A stretch of 13,188 nt of DNA from a virus. Its lineage: Duplodnaviria > Heunggongvirae > Uroviricota > Caudoviricetes. The stretch lies in the IMG/VR virus record IMGVR_UViG_2617270976_000003, positions 1 through 13,188 of that record, one strand, 5' to 3'. How positions within the stretch are numbered: the stretch's first letter is position 1; every line of letters begins with the position of its first letter. The position numbers and the translations under genes are program-made. Under the pieces are notes generated by a model. It saw nothing but the letters and a program-made list of their open reading frames with translations. It had not been told where the DNA came from and ran no database searches. This document shows, in pieces, positions 1 through 13,188 of this stretch.

Positions 1-1
1 C

Positions 2-118
2 CAGAAAATCATTGATATGGCCATGAATGGCGTTGGATGCCGGGCAACAGCCCGCATTATGGGCGTTGGCCTCAACACGATTTTACGTCACTTAAAAAAC
101 TCAGGCCGCAGTCGGTAA
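2..118 (+). CDS. insA: IS1 InsA, C-terminal part only (5' end off-window)
   Basis: Frame from position 2 translates to [38 protein letters not shown], stop taa at 116-118; matches the InsA C-terminus as recalled. Confidence 0.85.
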
Positions 119-540
119 CCTCGCGCATACAGCCGGGCAGTGACGTCATCGTCTGCGCGGAAATGGACGAACAGTGGGGCTATGTCGGGGCTAAATCGCG
201 CCAGCGCTGGCTGTTTTACGCGTATGACAGTCTCCGGAAGACGGTTGTTGCGCACGTATTCGGTGAACGCACTATGGCGACGCTGGGGCGTCTTATGAGC
301 CTGCTGTCACCCTTTGACGTGGTGATATGGATGACGGATGGCTGGCCGCTGTATGAATCCCGCCTGAAGGGAAAGCTGCACGTAATCAGCAAGCGATATA
401 CGCAGCGAATTGAGCGGCATAACCTGAATCTGAGGCAGCACCTGGCACGGCTGGGACGGAAGTCGCTGTCGTTCTCAAAATCGGTGGAGCTGCATGACAA
501 AGTCATCGGGCATTATCTGAACATAAAACACTATCAATAA
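37..540 (+). CDS. insB: IS1 InsB (transposase catalytic part; expressed in vivo as the InsAB' frameshift fusion)
   Basis: 167-aa [28 protein letters not shown]...HYLNIKHYQ, which I recognise as the IS1 InsB sequence; it sits in the -1 frame relative to insA. Confidence 0.9.
94..100 (+). other. IS1 programmed -1 ribosomal frameshift slippery heptamer (A6C) producing the InsAB' transposase
   Basis: Sequence aaaaaac at 94-100 inside cttaaaaaactcagg, near the insA 3' end and overlapping the insB frame; this is the established IS1 recoding site. Confidence 0.8.
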
Positions 541-560
541 GTTGGAGTCATTACCTGTTA

Positions 561-1247
561 GTGGATGACTGTCCACGATGTGGATCACAAAAAATAGCGT
601 TTGATGTTAATGGGCTGAATTGCACTAGGGTTTACAATGCATTGGGCGGGGGTAAAACATACGAGTACGAGGTCTATTGTGTTTGCCGAGAGTGTCATAA
701 AACGACAATGTTTCTTTGCAGACCTTTAACGAAAAATAAAACTTTAGATGGCTATAATTGGGAAAGTGGAATATTCGGCTTAAAGGAAGTTGCAGAGGTT
801 GTTAGGCCTATATCACCGGCAGACTTAGCAGTAGAGGAGCCACCAGAGTTCTTACCTGAGCATATCAATAGTGCATATGAGGAAGGGGCGAAATGTTTGG
901 CTATAGGTTGTTATAATGCAGCAGCAACCATGTTTAGGCTTTGCCTTGATTATGCCACAAAAGGACTTCTTCCTGATGGGGAGCAAGGGCCTGCGCAAAA
1001 AATAAGGAGAAGCCTAGGGTTAAGAATGGAGTGGTTATTTGATAATCATCTACTGCCTGAAGCTTTAAGGGAACTAGCTGAATGCGTTAAAGATGACGGA
1101 AATGATGGAGCGCATGAAGGTATTTTGGATAAAGCTGCTGCTGAGGATCTTGAAGATTTTACCTATCTTTTTTTAGAACGGCTTTACACTGAACCTCAAC
1201 GCCTTATCGAAGCCAAGACAAGGCGTGAACAAAGAAGAAACAAATAA
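561..1247 (+). CDS. Cargo protein: N-terminal C4 zinc ribbon plus C-terminal domain with a GN..AH motif (DUF4145/HEPN-like?); candidate abortive-infection or defence effector
   Basis: 228-aa ORF in visibly AT-rich DNA between the IS1 end (555) and the portal gene stop (1256). Cys at residues 4, 7, 42, 45 (CPRC ... CREC) suggests a zinc ribbon. C-terminal ECVKDDGNDGAHEG (nt 1089-1115) resembles the GN..AH signature I associate with DUF4145-type domains. The start is uncertain: GTG at 561 is the first start after the IS1 end and the frame stays open upstream into IS1, so the native 5' end may have been removed by the insertion. Confidence 0.75.
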   Translation: MDDCPRCGSQKIAFDVNGLNCTRVYNALGGGKTYEYEVYCVCRECHKTTMFLCRPLTKNKTLDGYNWESGIFGLKEVAEVVRPISPADLAVEEPPEFLPEHINSAYEEGAKCLAIGCYNAAATMFRLCLDYATKGLLPDGEQGPAQKIRRSLGLRMEWLFDNHLLPEALRELAECVKDDGNDGAHEGILDKAAAEDLEDFTYLFLERLYTEPQRLIEAKTRREQRRNK

Positions 1248-1255
1248 GTTCGGAA

Positions 1256-2290
1256 TTATTCTTCTGAAAGAATATAGGGCGTAAATTTAATCACTTCTTC
1301 GCCCAGCCAGTCGTTCAGCTCTTGTAGCCTTTTTTGCAAGGGCGTTAATTCATTACGTACAAATACGCGACTGGCCTTCTCCACATCCCCAAACCCTCCA
1401 ACATTATTAGGCATAATCCCCATCATTTGCGGCGGCACGCGGTGCGCAGCCATCATGTCGTCGCGGCTGACATTTTTGATATTCAAAAACTCATCCTTCG
1501 CCGCGACTTCTGACAATGGGATGATCTGAAGCCCGTCTTTTTTGCCGTTAGGCGAGTACATAAACAGGTTGCGGAAGTTGCCTGGACCTTTGGCGCTTTT
1601 CATCGCATTGCGGAGGTTGTTCACATCCTCCTGGTTTTGCGCGGCATCGGTCATGTACATGATAAAGCCCGCATGACTGCCGTTAATGTAATACTTGCGA
1701 CGGAACAGCGTGGCGGACTCGTTGAGCAGGGCTGACGGAATGGCAGAAAGATAACCGGGCAGGCCGTAGATCTCCTGATTAATATCCGGTTCCATCAGAT
1801 GAAAAATGCTGCCTTTCGTGAACTGATACGGCTGGGTTGTCATACCGTATTGCACAAACCAGTAGGTATCCAGGTCTAACCCGCGTCGGGTGTATTTTGC
1901 CAGTGCAGGCTCAAGGGCGATAACTTCACCGAAGCGGTTCGTGCGTTTCTCCAGGTAGGCGTTACCAAAAACCAGATAGTCCTGCACAAAACGCGAAAAA
2001 GCCTGCTGGCTGAGCAGCGGGTGAGGGATGTAGGTGCTGGTCAGAATGTTGCACTTTACTGCAATCGGGGAACTATGATGCACGGCAGCGCGGAAGGTGC
2101 GCGCCAGTCCGTCAAAGCTGACGGGCGGCTCATACCAGCGGTCCATCTGTACGCATTCCACATAATCCAGCAGTTCTCGGCGGTCCAGAACAGGAACGGG
2201 ATCGCCGAAGCTGAATGCTTCGGCTGTAGTTTGACTTTTAAGCTGGATCTGTTTCGTCGCCGCAGCGCGGTTCTTCTTACTCTTTCCCAT
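1256..2290 (-). CDS. Q: Portal (capsid portal vertex) protein, P2 gpQ-like
   Basis: 344 aa from the ATG at 2290-2288, the same length as P2 gpQ; immediately downstream of the large terminase with a TGATG stop/start overlap, as in P2. The ORF track extends it by one TTG codon to 2293. Confidence 0.9.
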   Translation of the reverse strand: MGKSKKNRAAATKQIQLKSQTTAEAFSFGDPVPVLDRRELLDYVECVQMDRWYEPPVSFDGLARTFRAAVHHSSPIAVKCNILTSTYIPHPLLSQQAFSRFVQDYLVFGNAYLEKRTNRFGEVIALEPALAKYTRRGLDLDTYWFVQYGMTTQPYQFTKGSIFHLMEPDINQEIYGLPGYLSAIPSALLNESATLFRRKYYINGSHAGFIMYMTDAAQNQEDVNNLRNAMKSAKGPGNFRNLFMYSPNGKKDGLQIIPLSEVAAKDEFLNIKNVSRDDMMAAHRVPPQMMGIMPNNVGGFGDVEKASRVFVRNELTPLQKRLQELNDWLGEEVIKFTPYILSEE

Positions 2291-4056
2291 CAAAAAATCT
2301 CCACAATATTGCTGGTATTGGCGGATTCGCCCTGCAGCGGTTCGTTAAACAGTGCGTGCATCGTTGCCCAGGCCAGATCGGCGTGGCTGGCTTCTTCGCT
2401 GCGGCTGGCTTCATAGGTCGGGCGGTTGCCACTGGCGGTGGTGGCGCGACGGATTGCCATAAAGGACTGCGCTATGTCGGTGTGTCCGGCGTCAAACTCC
2501 AGACGGCGGTGGCTGATAATGTCGTAGGCCTTGAGTACCAGGGCGTTTTTAACGTTGGGGTTGTAGACAAACTCCCGGACGGCAGGAAAAAACGCTTTCA
2601 CGTTCTCGTAAACCCCGTGACCAACGCCGGTTGAGTCGATACCGATATAGGTCACGTTGTACTGTTCGGTCAGTTTTTTGATGGCGTCAGCCTGGGCGCG
2701 GAAGTCCATTCCGCGCCACTGGTGACGCTCAAGAATGCGGAACTTACCGCCCGGCACGGCTGGCGGCGCCACCACCACGCATCCGGCGCTGTCGCCGTTC
2801 TGCGTACCTTTCGCCGGGTCATATCCGATCCACACTTCGCGCCAGCCAAACGGGCGCAGGGCCAGTGCATGAAAGTCGGTCCAGACTTCCCAACTGTCCA
2901 CCATGCACGCCTGCAGCTCGCTGAGCGGGAACACGGACGCGAGATCGTCCACGAACTCGCACATCAGCAGGTTCTGGTATTCGTCCGGGCTGTACTCCAT
3001 GCGCAACTGGTCAAGGTCGAACAGGTTACAGCCGCCGCGCACCGCATCTTCCACGGTGACTATCTGGCGGTACTGCCCGTCTGCGCACAGCAGGCCGGGG
3101 GCCAGATTGCTGTGGGACAGGTCGATGTCCACCTTATCGGCTTTGTTGCGCCCTCGGTTGAACAGCGCACCGGACCAGAACGGATAAGCACTGTGTGTCA
3201 GGCTGGATGGCGTGGAAAAATAGGTTTGTCGCCATTTTTTGTGAATAGCCATACCGGAAGCCACTTTGCGCAGCTCCTGGAATTTCGGTATCCAGAAATA
3301 TTCATCCAGATACAGGTTGCCGTGGTAACTCTGGGCCGTGCGGGCATTGGTGCCGAGGAAGTAAAGCGTGGCCCCGTTAGGAAGCACCATCGGATCGCCT
3401 TTCAGCTCCACCTCGACTTCTTTGGCGAAGTCGATGATGTACTGCTTAAAGACGTGGGCCTGTGCCTTACTGGCGGAAAGGAAAATCTGGTTACGTCCGG
3501 TCAGCAGGGCGTCAATCAGGGCTTCACGGGCAAAGTAAAAGGTCGCGCCGATCTGGCGAGACTTCAGCAGGTTGCGGATGCGATTGGTTTTTCCGGCTTC
3601 CCACCAGTGGCGCTGGTAGTTGAACATGGAGGAATGGAAGATTTCTTCCAGCTTCTCAATCTGTTCATCGGTGAAAACATTCTTTTCCGGCTGACGGCGC
3701 GGCCCTTTGTTGCGGTTGGCGACGTTAGGGTTTAAGTCGGCTTCGTTGCCGCCATTGTTAAACTTGCCGATCCGCGCGTGGCGCTCCGACTGGCGCGCCA
3801 GCAGGTCAATTTCTTTGAAATCTTTCCCTTCTTTGTGCTCCTTCATAATGAGCTGGCAGTAGCGGGCGGCGGTGGTGAGCTGCATCTGATCCAGCGGCCC
3901 ATAGTCACCCCACTTGTCGCGTTTTTTCCAGCTGTGAACGGTTGCAACTTTCTCGCCCAGCATTTCAGCAATGCGGGCTACGCGGTATCCCTGAAAGTAC
4001 AGCAGCATGGCCTGCCGACGGGGATCGAGATCTGCGGGTGTCAGTGTGGTGTTCAT
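2290..4056 (-). CDS. P: Terminase large (ATPase) subunit, P2 gpP-like
   Basis: 588-aa ORF (P2 gpP is ~590 aa), divergent from the scaffold/capsid operon as in P2. The long plus-strand ORF inside it is antisense noise. Confidence 0.9.
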   Translation of the reverse strand: MNTTLTPADLDPRRQAMLLYFQGYRVARIAEMLGEKVATVHSWKKRDKWGDYGPLDQMQLTTAARYCQLIMKEHKEGKDFKEIDLLARQSERHARIGKFNNGGNEADLNPNVANRNKGPRRQPEKNVFTDEQIEKLEEIFHSSMFNYQRHWWEAGKTNRIRNLLKSRQIGATFYFAREALIDALLTGRNQIFLSASKAQAHVFKQYIIDFAKEVEVELKGDPMVLPNGATLYFLGTNARTAQSYHGNLYLDEYFWIPKFQELRKVASGMAIHKKWRQTYFSTPSSLTHSAYPFWSGALFNRGRNKADKVDIDLSHSNLAPGLLCADGQYRQIVTVEDAVRGGCNLFDLDQLRMEYSPDEYQNLLMCEFVDDLASVFPLSELQACMVDSWEVWTDFHALALRPFGWREVWIGYDPAKGTQNGDSAGCVVVAPPAVPGGKFRILERHQWRGMDFRAQADAIKKLTEQYNVTYIGIDSTGVGHGVYENVKAFFPAVREFVYNPNVKNALVLKAYDIISHRRLEFDAGHTDIAQSFMAIRRATTASGNRPTYEASRSEEASHADLAWATMHALFNEPLQGESANTSNIVEIF

Positions 4057-5048: not shown

Positions 5049-6107
5049 ATGAAGAAGAATACCCGTTTTGCTTTTAACGCTTACCTGCAGCAACTGGCGC
5101 GTCTGAACGGTGTGGCAGTTGAGGAACTGTCCAGCAAGTTCACCGTAGAGCCGTCTGTGCAGCAGACGCTGGAAGACCAGATCCAGCAGTCCGCCGCTTT
5201 CCTGACGCTGATTAACGTCACGCCAGTGACTGAGCAGTCCGGTCAGCTGCTTGGATTGGGTGTTGGCAGCACCATTGCCGGAACCACTGACACCACCGCG
5301 AAAGAGCGTGAACCTGTCGATCCGACGCTGATGAGCGATGTGGAATACAAATGCGAACAGACCAACTTTGACACGGTGCTGACCTACGCGAAGCTGGACC
5401 TGTGGGCGAAGTTTCAGGATTTCCAGGTGCGTATCCGTGACGCCATCGTGAAACGCCAGGCACTGGACCGCATCATGATCGGCTTTAACGGCGTGAAGCG
5501 TGCGAAAACCTCCAACCGTAGCGAAAACCCGCTGCTGCAGGATGTGAACAAAGGCTGGCTGCAGAAAATCCGTGAGGATGCACCGGATCACGTCATGGGC
5601 AGCACCACCACGGGCGGTGAAACCACACCGGGTGCGGTGAAAGTCGGGAAAGGTGGCGAATATGCCAACCTGGACGCCGTGGTGATGGATGCGGTCAATG
5701 AGCTTATCGACGTGGTCTACCAGGACGATGACGATCTGGTGGTGATTTGCGGTCGTGAGCTGCTGTCTGACAAGTATTTCCCGCTGGTCAACAAAGAGCA
5801 GGAAAACAGTGAAAAACTGGCTGCCGATATGATCATCAGTCAGAAACGCATGGGTGGCCTGCAGGCCGTGCGTGCGCCGTTCTTCCCGCCGAATGCGCTG
5901 CTGATCACCCGTCTGGATAACCTGTCCATTTACTGGCAGGAAGACACCCGCCGCCGTTCGGTTATCGACAACCCGAAACGTGACCGGATTGAAAATTTTG
6001 AATCCGTTAACGAAGCCTATGTGGTTGAGGACTACCGCTGCGCCGCACTGGTGGAAAACATCCAGATTGGCGACTTCAGCGCCGCCGCAGCAGAAACCGG
6101 AGCGTAA
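5049..6107 (+). CDS. N: Major capsid protein, P2 gpN-like
   Basis: 352-aa ORF with strong recalled similarity to P2 gpN throughout (e.g. RFAFNAYL, FTVEPSVQQTL, LDLWAKFQDFQVRIRDAIVKRQALD, GFNGVKRA, LAADMIISQKR); GGAG RBS. Confidence 0.95.
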   Translation: MKKNTRFAFNAYLQQLARLNGVAVEELSSKFTVEPSVQQTLEDQIQQSAAFLTLINVTPVTEQSGQLLGLGVGSTIAGTTDTTAKEREPVDPTLMSDVEYKCEQTNFDTVLTYAKLDLWAKFQDFQVRIRDAIVKRQALDRIMIGFNGVKRAKTSNRSENPLLQDVNKGWLQKIREDAPDHVMGSTTTGGETTPGAVKVGKGGEYANLDAVVMDAVNELIDVVYQDDDDLVVICGRELLSDKYFPLVNKEQENSEKLAADMIISQKRMGGLQAVRAPFFPPNALLITRLDNLSIYWQEDTRRRSVIDNPKRDRIENFESVNEAYVVEDYRCAALVENIQIGDFSAAAAETGA

Positions 6108-9641: not shown

Positions 9642-10172
9642 TTACGCTCTTAATAAACTTAAATAACTTTTTATGCTTTGGCAAAAAGGGAAAAGGTCTA
9701 TTTTAATTTTCCAGTTTTTTTTGTTTTGAACCCCAGAAGCAATAATAGAACCGTCCCAATATTTTATTCCATTTTTGCCGGTCTTTTTTGTTAACTCAAA
9801 ACTTAATGCGTGAATAATTTTATTGCAGCATTCGCGTATAGAATCTTTAACATGACCATCTATAACAAAAAGTATATTTTCATGTTCTTCAAATGCTTCT
9901 TTCTCAGGTGAGTAATCTGGGTTCCACTCATGTTCACTAGTGTCTTGGAGAATTCGTAGTTTTGTACAAAGGCTAATAAGATTGTTGCTAATGGTATATT
10001 CCAACCATCCGTTGTACGATAACTCCTCCATTTCAAATTCAGTTACTATAGAACCATCATATACTTTCTGTGTGGAATATATACGCTGTAAATAAAATTC
10101 AGATGAACAGCATAATTGCTCAATTATTCTTGCGTGTTCTTCTATAGCGTAATAATCAATTGGATGGCTCAT
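9642..10172 (-). CDS. Hypothetical protein of unknown function in a very AT-rich island; candidate defence or accessory cargo
   Basis: 176 aa from the ATG at 10172-10170 (MSHPIDYY...), with an AAAGG RBS about 7 nt upstream. The ORF-track start at 10211 has no RBS and overlaps the dyad element at 10204-10221. Stop is 5 bp from the S stop (convergent). No homologue recognised; contains RECCNKIIH (R113, N117, H121; nt 9810-9836). Confidence 0.75.
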   Translation of the reverse strand: MSHPIDYYAIEEHARIIEQLCCSSEFYLQRIYSTQKVYDGSIVTEFEMEELSYNGWLEYTISNNLISLCTKLRILQDTSEHEWNPDYSPEKEAFEEHENILFVIDGHVKDSIRECCNKIIHALSFELTKKTGKNGIKYWDGSIIASGVQNKKNWKIKIDLFPFCQSIKSYLSLLRA

Positions 10173-12097: not shown

Positions 12098-12695
12098 TCT
12101 GCTGCCACCGGGTTCAACTTCACTGGAGCGCCGACTGGCGCAAACCTGTAGCGGGATTTCTGATCTGCAGGTGCCGCTGCGTGACTTGTGGAATCCGGCT
12201 ACCTGTCCGGTCAGCTTCCTGCCTTATCTCGCCTGGGCGTTCTCTGTGGATCGCTGGGACGAGGGCTGGACAGAAAGCGTCAAACGCCAGGTAGTGAAGG
12301 ATGCTTTTTATATTCATCAGCATAAAGGAACTACCAGTGCCGTGCGGCGGGTGGTGGAACCGTTCGGATTCCTGATCCGCATTATTGAGTGGTGGCAGAC
12401 CGGAGAAACACCGGGCACGTTTCGCCTGGATATCGGCGTGCAGGACCAGGGCATCACTGAAGATACCTATCTGGAACTTGAGCGGCTGATAAGCGATGCC
12501 AAACCATGTAGCCGTCACATGATCGGCATGTCCATCAATCTGCAGACCAGCGGTCCGCATTGGGTGGGGGCCGCCAGCTATCTTGGCGAAGAAATCACGA
12601 TCTATCCGTATATCAACGAAACAATTATTTCCGGCGGCACCGCGCATGAAGGCGGGGCGGTCCATGTTATTGACACAATGAGAGTGAATCCATGA
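12090..12695 (+). CDS. I: Baseplate/tail protein, P2 gpI-like
   Basis: 201 aa; overlaps J end; LWNP.TCP, LPYLAWAFSVDRWDE.W, HKGT, RRVVEP.G, PGTFRLDIGV and DAKP.SRH match gpI; somewhat longer than P2 gpI (~176 aa). Confidence 0.88.
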   Translation: MNSLLPPGSTSLERRLAQTCSGISDLQVPLRDLWNPATCPVSFLPYLAWAFSVDRWDEGWTESVKRQVVKDAFYIHQHKGTTSAVRRVVEPFGFLIRIIEWWQTGETPGTFRLDIGVQDQGITEDTYLELERLISDAKPCSRHMIGMSINLQTSGPHWVGAASYLGEEITIYPYINETIISGGTAHEGGAVHVIDTMRVNP

Positions 12696-13188
12696 GCACA
12701 AAATTTTATACCCTGCTGACGGATATTGGCGCGGCGAAACTTGCCAGCGCCGCCGCGCTCGGTGTGCCGCTAAAAATTACTCATATGGCGGTGGGCGATG
12801 GCGGCGGAACATTGCCAACGCCGGACGCCAAGCAGACAGCATTGGTAAATGAGAAACGCCGGGCTGCGCTGAATATGCTCTATATCGACCCGCAGAACAG
12901 CAGCCAGATTATTGCTGAACAGGTGATCCCTGAAAACGAGGGCGGTTGGTGGATACGTGAAGTGGGCCTGTTTGATGAGTCCGGGGCATTGATTGCCGTG
13001 GGCAACTGCCCGGAAAGCTATAAGCCGCAACTGGCTGAAGGCAGCGGGCGTACCCAGACCGTGCGCATGGTGCTGATTACCAGCAGCACGGACAATATCA
13101 CCCTGAAAATCGACCCTGCCGTAGTGCTGGCAACCCGCAAGTATGTGGATGACAAGGTACTGGAGCTGAAGGTGTACGTGGATGATCA
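12692..13188 (+). CDS. H: Tail fibre protein, N-terminal part (P2 gpH-like); 3' end beyond window
   Basis: ATG at 12692 opens a frame with no stop to the window end, so it is absent from the ORF track. Translation MSTKFYTLLTDIGAAKLA...MAVGDGGG...AESYKP.LAEGSGR.QT.RMV matches the conserved gpH N-terminal baseplate-attachment domain. Confidence 0.85.
   Translation, partial: MSTKFYTLLTDIGAAKLASAAALGVPLKITHMAVGDGGGTLPTPDAKQTALVNEKRRAALNMLYIDPQNSSQIIAEQVIPENEGGWWIREVGLFDESGALIAVGNCPESYKPQLAEGSGRTQTVRMVLITSSTDNITLKIDPAVVLATRKYVDDKVLELKVYVDD

Follow-up and report, generated by a model that had tools for sequence, protein, structure and literature searches.

IS1A in codon 3 of a putative RAZR-like defence gene of a Cartapus-type P2-like prophage of Escherichia coli

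Organization of the locus

The stretch of DNA analysed here (in the following, the window; 13,188 bases) is the complete contig JNQT01000071.1 of the draft assembly GCA_000704325.1 of E. coli 2-316-03_S4_C2. It consists of the 3' part of an insertion sequence of the IS1A type, the almost complete body of a putative RAZR/PD-T7-4-like gene, and a large portion of a P2-like prophage that begins with the portal gene (Table 1). From position 556 to its end at 13188, the window is 99.9-100% identical to the P2-like prophage of E. coli TOK-001, LF82, and others. The LF82 copy has been named phage Cartapus (genus Elveevirus, NC_070909), for which a low level of spontaneous induction was described in LF82 (PMC9928086). 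On its left side the contig breaks inside the IS1 repeat, its first base corresponding to IS1 position 214, and on its right side it stops inside the conserved N-terminal part of a tail-fibre gene (window 12692-13188, gene start at 12692). As both ends are located within repeated sequence, both represent assembly breaks.

The putative defence gene and the portal gene are convergent, and the latter, a homologue of gpQ, marks the right border of the cos-proximal hotspot of the prophage. Only 8 nt separate the stop codons of the two genes, and a terminator-like hairpin was not predicted in this interval (window 1245-1258). Further to the right, the genes S (tail completion) and V (baseplate) flank an ORF of 176 aa that is oriented antisense to the late genes (9642-10172, minus strand). 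This ORF is without a Pfam domain, matches PHROG 18838 (unknown function), and is a moron-like gene at a second variable position of P2-like phages.

Table 1 Features at the left end of the window
Feature	Position	Strand	Basis or remark
IS1A-type element, 3' 555 bp (IS1 positions 214-768 of the 768-bp element)	1..555	+	Identity to complete IS1A copies
insA, 3' end (stop 116-118)	within 1..555	+	
A6C frameshift motif TTAAAAAAC	92-100	+	
insB frame (stop TAA 538-540)	37-540	+	Pfam DDE_Tnp_IS1
IS1 right terminal inverted repeat, 23 bp, ATCAATAAGTTGGAGTCATTACC	533..555	+	Terminus shared with three full-length IS1A copies
RAZR/PD-T7-4-like gene body, second base of native codon 3 to stop	556..1247	+	100% identical to the LF82/Cartapus gene from 556 on
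N-terminal Cys4 zinc-ribbon region	570..695	+	Cys codons 570-572, 579-581, 684-686, 693-695
DUF4145 (HEPN-superfamily) domain	888..1157	+	Pfam PF13643, E 4.5e-7, 30.3 bits (gathering cut-off 23.1)
P2-type portal gene (gpQ homologue)	1256..2290	-	Pfam Phage_portal; annotated as phage portal protein in LF82 and Cartapus

The IS1 segment and its junction with the prophage

The first 555 bases of the window were compared with three complete 768-bp IS1A copies located at unrelated chromosomal sites, to which they are identical in 555/555, 554/555, and 553/555 positions, respectively, and the segment has thousands of matches of at least 99% identity that are annotated as IS1A family transposase. All three complete copies terminate at the base equivalent to window 555 (...AAGTTGGAGTCATTACC), exactly where a preliminary description of this DNA had placed the right end of IS1, and the 23-bp inverted repeat ending ...GGAGTCATTACC is present at this terminus. 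The coding region shows the insA/insB' layout with an A6C -1 frameshift site and insB in the -1 frame, the start of insA being located outside the window. The 100% identity to an active-type copy agrees with a recent event. Clean 9-bp target duplications flank two of the three IS1A copies used for comparison.

Homology with the IS1-free genomes breaks exactly at 555/556, and the match to IS1 is therefore no chance resemblance. A misjoining of an IS1 segment to a prophage contig by a short-read assembler might be considered, since the draft assembly is fragmented and the contig ends in repeats on both sides (IS1 on the left, the N-terminal part of the tail-fibre gene on the right). We regard such an artefact as extremely improbable, because the join coincides with the very last base of the IS1 inverted repeat, which is predicted by transposition but not by a chimeric join, and because the contig shows the usual behaviour of assemblers, which carry unique sequence on into an adjacent repeat before stopping.

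The native gene and its start

Alleles without IS1 and with at least 99% identity are present in about 40 complete E. coli genomes and in phage Cartapus (gp01), and in the IS1-free genomes inspected a single uninterrupted alignment extends from the cos region through the gene. The native coding sequence specifies a DUF4145 protein of 232 aa (WP_000245245.1 in RefSeq) and starts with an ATG 7 nt upstream of the base that corresponds to window 556, the native 5' sequence being GGGAGGAGTAATTGAC-ATG-GTT-ATG-TTA-GTG-GAT-GAC-TGT. This ATG is preceded at a distance of 9 nt by a strong ribosome-binding site (GGGAGGAG), whose Shine-Dalgarno (SD) sequence UAGGGAGGA pairs with the 3' end of the 16S rRNA with -11.6 kcal/mol.

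The longest ORF remaining in the window starts with GTG 561, ends at 1247, and encodes the 228-aa protein KDY13613.1. Two alignments of 28 and 54 homologues, which range from Enterobacteriaceae to Nitrospira and are 48-100% identical, revealed the N-terminus M-x-x-[L/M/F]-V-x-[D/N]-C-P-R-C in all of them. The GTG of the window aligns with the conserved Val5 across the homologues and is thus not the native start; judged from these alignments, the codon is that of native Val5 and never serves as a start codon. The preliminary description had proposed, as one of two alternatives, a 5' truncation with loss of the native N-terminus, unless homologues free of IS1 began at the same GTG. They begin four codons earlier, the IS1-free alleles at the ATG 7 nt left of the junction, and the truncation is thereby supported. 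Its extent differs between protein and DNA: IS1 lies inside native codon 3 and leaves 228 of the 232 codons intact, so that the protein loses only four residues, whereas both ATGs (through loss of ATG-GTT-A), the SD sequence, and all DNA further upstream, including cos, are lost from the gene.

A distant relative of RAZR

PD-T7-4, a single-gene abortive infection system, has been renamed RAZR for ring-activated zinc-finger RNase (Vassallo et al. 2022, PMC9519451; Nature 2026, PMC13017515). RAZR consists of a Cys4 zinc ribbon and a DUF4145/HEPN RNase domain; once assembled around ring-shaped phage proteins, e.g. portals, it cleaves RNA (PMC13017515). Fusions of zinc ribbons to DUF4145, a member of the HEPN RNase superfamily, have been described (PMC3710099).

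The gene described here resembles RAZR in being a single gene of ~200-230 aa with an N-terminal Cys4 zinc ribbon, a C-terminal DUF4145/HEPN-like domain, and a conserved histidine. In the alignments of 28 and 54 sequences, C4, C7, C42, and C45 (window numbering; CPRC...CxxC) as well as His185 (1113-1115) are invariant, and Lys177 (1089-1091) is nearly so. The profile for PD-T7-4 of PADLOC (PDLC04109) gave a weak, remote match to the window protein (E 1.2e-6, 26 bits) and matches 52 of the 54 homologues with a best E value of 8.2e-10. Two differences from RAZR are evident. A lysine is found eight positions before the invariant histidine, whereas RAZR-Ec has the catalytic residues R146 and H154 (matched by the offset from the histidine), and the gene is located in the cos-portal hotspot of a P2-like prophage, whereas PD-T7-4 was described as 'often overlapping an integrase gene' (PMC9519451). 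The arginine of the canonical HEPN motif R-x4-6-H is absent, the sequence being GNDGAH. Searches of PDB chains with the single sequence and with a profile yielded no match at E<=1, the solved RAZR structures 9Y9C and 9Y6U included, and an AF2 model built from the single sequence (pLDDT 36) was unusable. Taken as a comparison of sequences, these data partly establish the gene as a single-gene distant relative of RAZR, and the RAZR-like family presumably functions in defence. The DUF4145 defence protein BxaP differs in architecture and is too distant to matter.

An ENA metagenome contig of 7,060 bp encodes a variant of 206 aa (P0027) whose identity to the native protein extends to residue 144, where 63 unrelated residues take over. 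This C-terminal part was considered as a further IS insertion, an idea that was rejected, as it matched neither IS1, nor the window, nor enterobacterial plasmids, the only match being a weak one to an Azospirillum plasmid.

Location next to cos

P2-like phages possess a cos-proximal defence hotspot, which in P2 holds old and tin (Rousset et al. 2022, PMC9122126; PMC9519451). The prophage of LF82 shows the order A, small ORFs, cos, gene, Q, and in Cartapus cos occupies positions 1-59, gp01 162-860, and the portal gene 869-1903. The gene thus shares with the old/tin hotspot of P2 its position between the replication gene A and the portal gene Q, the proximity to cos, and the variable content of the site, and differs in being located on the portal side of cos. 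The flank carrying cos is common to about 1,270 E. coli genomes, whereas the gene occurs in about 44 only, as expected of a hotspot. In the text of PMC9122126, the gene family is absent from the systems named and DUF4145 is not mentioned. A P2-type cos is located upstream of the gene at positions 5833-5891 of locus L001 (corresponding to Cartapus 1-59), which makes the gene the first one of the packaged linear genome; counted from the left end of the phage genome, the insertion point of IS1 is at 168 bp.

Transcription and translation signals left at the junction

The observations of the preliminary description on the junction hold true in all details. GTG 561, 5 nt past the end of IS1, is indeed the first start codon; the reading frame is open upstream into IS1, where it extends back to the TGA at 495-497 and contains no ATG, GTG, or TTG ahead of 561; the only upstream SD-like sequence is GGAG (544-547), for which a pairing energy of -5.9 kcal/mol was calculated (pairing 540-547) and which lies 13 nt from the GTG; and the gene is co-oriented with insB. 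The reading frames differ (insA 2, insB 1, cargo gene 0), and these differing frames together with the in-frame TGA at 495 rule out an InsB-cargo fusion protein.

A consensus scan of window 1-1400 detected no sigma-70-like promoter, and no intrinsic terminator was predicted in the same region, the interval between insB and the gene included. Activation of downstream genes by hybrid IS1 promoters has been reported for bla TEM-1, acrEF, and afaA (Prentki et al. 1986, as cited in PMC9330008 and PMC8764528), such a promoter being formed only with a correctly spaced -10 region (PMC8764528; PMC9330008). The junction resembles these cases in that IS1 is co-oriented and directly upstream of the gene and carries an outward -35-like TTGGAG 8 nt from its end, but differs from them in that no usable -10 is present 16-18 nt downstream. 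Even a scan with relaxed threshold found no -10 at 15-19 nt from the terminal TTGGAG of IS1. The hybrid promoter that had been suggested for this gene was therefore rejected: a -10 at the required spacing is missing, and the transcript would start downstream of GTG 561 and of the first cysteine codons.

A second way in which the gene could have been rewired and remained functional is read-through from IS1 (from P-IRL through insA/insB) or from phage promoters, with translation starting at GTG 561 by means of GGAG and yielding, at an altered level, a protein that lacks four residues. The orientation of IS1, the undamaged body of the ORF with an in-frame GTG and an upstream GGAG, the lack of a predicted terminator in window 1-1400, and the retention of all four zinc-ribbon cysteines and of the whole DUF4145 domain agree with this possibility. 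Moreover, the measured effect of co-oriented IS1 insertions on downstream transcription varies, with increases, decreases, and cases without change (PMC8764528).

We consider such a rewiring unlikely, however, because the pairing energy of the SD sequence is halved (-5.9 vs -11.6 kcal/mol), the spacing of 13 nt exceeds the optimum, and GTG takes the place of ATG as start codon. In E. coli, initiation is optimal at an SD spacing of 5-9 nt. P-IRL is a weak promoter under autorepression by InsA, and polarity is the classical effect of IS1 insertions (references in PMC9330008). Since insB is translated only after a rare frameshift, translational coupling would be negligible, and the hybrid promoter is absent. 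The start codon would be occluded by a local hairpin predicted between 546-554 and 561-570; since its stability does not exceed that of shuffled sequences, this hairpin is given little weight.

Probable consequence of the insertion

The observations at the junction are, in our view, best explained by a knock-out: with a probability of roughly 70%, the insertion of IS1A into codon 3 of a stand-alone, Cartapus-type gp01 created a null allele or a strong hypomorph, recent and private to the strain, rather than a rewired gene. According to this proposal, a 768-bp IS1A would have transposed into codon 3 of gp01 in a Cartapus-type P2-like prophage and thereby detached both ATGs, the strong ribosome-binding site, and all upstream signals from the ORF. 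The remaining ORF would be able to start only at GTG 561, 13 nt after the weak GGAG in the IS1 terminus, would be without a promoter of its own, and would be out of frame with insB. Expression would be possible only by read-through transcripts that enter the gene from the IS1 promoter or cross IS1 from phage promoters, and initiation on them would be inefficient. Expression is thus presumably lost or very low, and low read-through expression may occur; the outcome would be the loss of a prophage-encoded defence.

The classic IS1 mutations of gal and lac are polar gene disruptions. IS1 insertions have been mapped across ST131 genomes and were found to be enriched in horizontally acquired regions (PMC8764528). 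The insertion described here corresponds to such disruptions in the 768-bp IS1A element, the standard terminus, the separation of a coding sequence from its start and signals, and the location in a horizontally acquired region; it differs from them in that the right junction alone is visible and in that nearly all of the ORF is preserved, the cut being located very near its 5' end.

For the source strain, the knock-out would mean that one prophage-encoded anti-phage gene is probably off, which is relevant only for predicting its susceptibility to phages. For annotation, it would mean that the 228-aa 'hypothetical protein' KDY13613.1 represents the remnant of a disrupted gene and not a normal gene. 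The locus would also provide one more case of IS elements eroding the defence cargo of prophages. Recent surveys found defence pseudogenes in P2-like prophages to be rare (bioRxiv 10.64898/2026.02.27.708500).

Simple insertion or rearrangement

We infer a simple insertion with a 9-bp duplication, a target of this length being assumed because other IS1A copies carry 9-bp duplications. The predicted target is TGTTAGTGG at 556..564 (plus strand); it would include GTG 561 and recur as a duplicate at the left end of IS1, outside the contig. In a simple insertion, the left end of IS1 should be preceded by ...GACATGGTTATGTTAGTGG, that is, ...GGAGGAGTAATTGACATGGTTATGTTAGTGG should be followed directly by GGTGATGCTGCCAAC (IS1 left end; GGTGATGCTGCCAACTTACTG), and the rest of the prophage should be found on another contig. 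A simple insertion, if true, lengthens the packaged genome by 777 bp (about 2.3%). The preliminary description had assumed that the rest of a cargo locus was displaced by IS1. This view was not sustained, since the gene is a stand-alone unit, and beyond IS1 a simple insertion would leave 7 nt of coding sequence, the SD sequence, cos, and the early genes.

An event of a different kind would be an IS1-mediated adjacent deletion or inversion, or a recombination between two IS1 copies, by which the 5' end of the gene, cos, and the early region would have been deleted or moved, the prophage being a defective remnant. The contig stops inside IS1 with its left flank unseen, and IS1 is able to generate adjacent deletions (PMC9330008). 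An IS3 in the same gene of strain A7 has an unrelated left flank, in a genome without the cos region. On the other hand, simple transposition is the commonest outcome, as illustrated by the clean 9-bp duplications at two of the three IS1A copies compared, the IS21-family element of strain MFDS1019527 was acquired by a simple insertion that created an 8-bp duplication, and the 12.6 kb following the junction on its right side are 99.9-100% identical to intact Cartapus-type prophages. A rearrangement at this site is hence judged to be of low probability.

None of 5,426 complete E. coli genomes contains the exact right junction, which also gave no match in metagenome contigs, and the predicted left junction, searched as a gapped pattern, gave no match in metagenome contigs or in species-representative genomes. 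The 228-aa form of the protein is encoded on one contig only, compared to at least 1,000 contigs for the 232-aa form. Most likely, the insertion is recent and strain-private. In summary terms of classification, it is an ordinary IS1 gene disruption in the prophage of one E. coli strain.

Other IS insertions at the locus

Among roughly 45 alleles, three independent IS events were found within about 290 bp, involving IS1, an IS21-family element, and IS3. In strain MFDS1019527 (L009, NZ_CP169309.1, 884-3000), the IS21-family element of 2.1 kb precedes the ATG by 43 bp, the gene itself being intact, and the 8-bp duplication corresponds to positions 5944-5951 of L001. In strain A7 (L008, NZ_CP028767.1, about 1750-3000), IS3 lies inside the gene at the position equivalent to L001 6233 and window 788.

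It is conceivable that the 5' end of the gene is a recurrent target of inactivating IS insertions because its silencing is selected, an abortive-infection RNase triggered by portal-like rings being possibly costly in the presence of several inducible prophages. We regard this as quite improbable, and the three events equally fit a neutral accumulation of IS elements in a dispensable, AT-rich accessory region. In strain A7, the gene fragment of 116 aa left by IS3 is annotated as a normal CDS.
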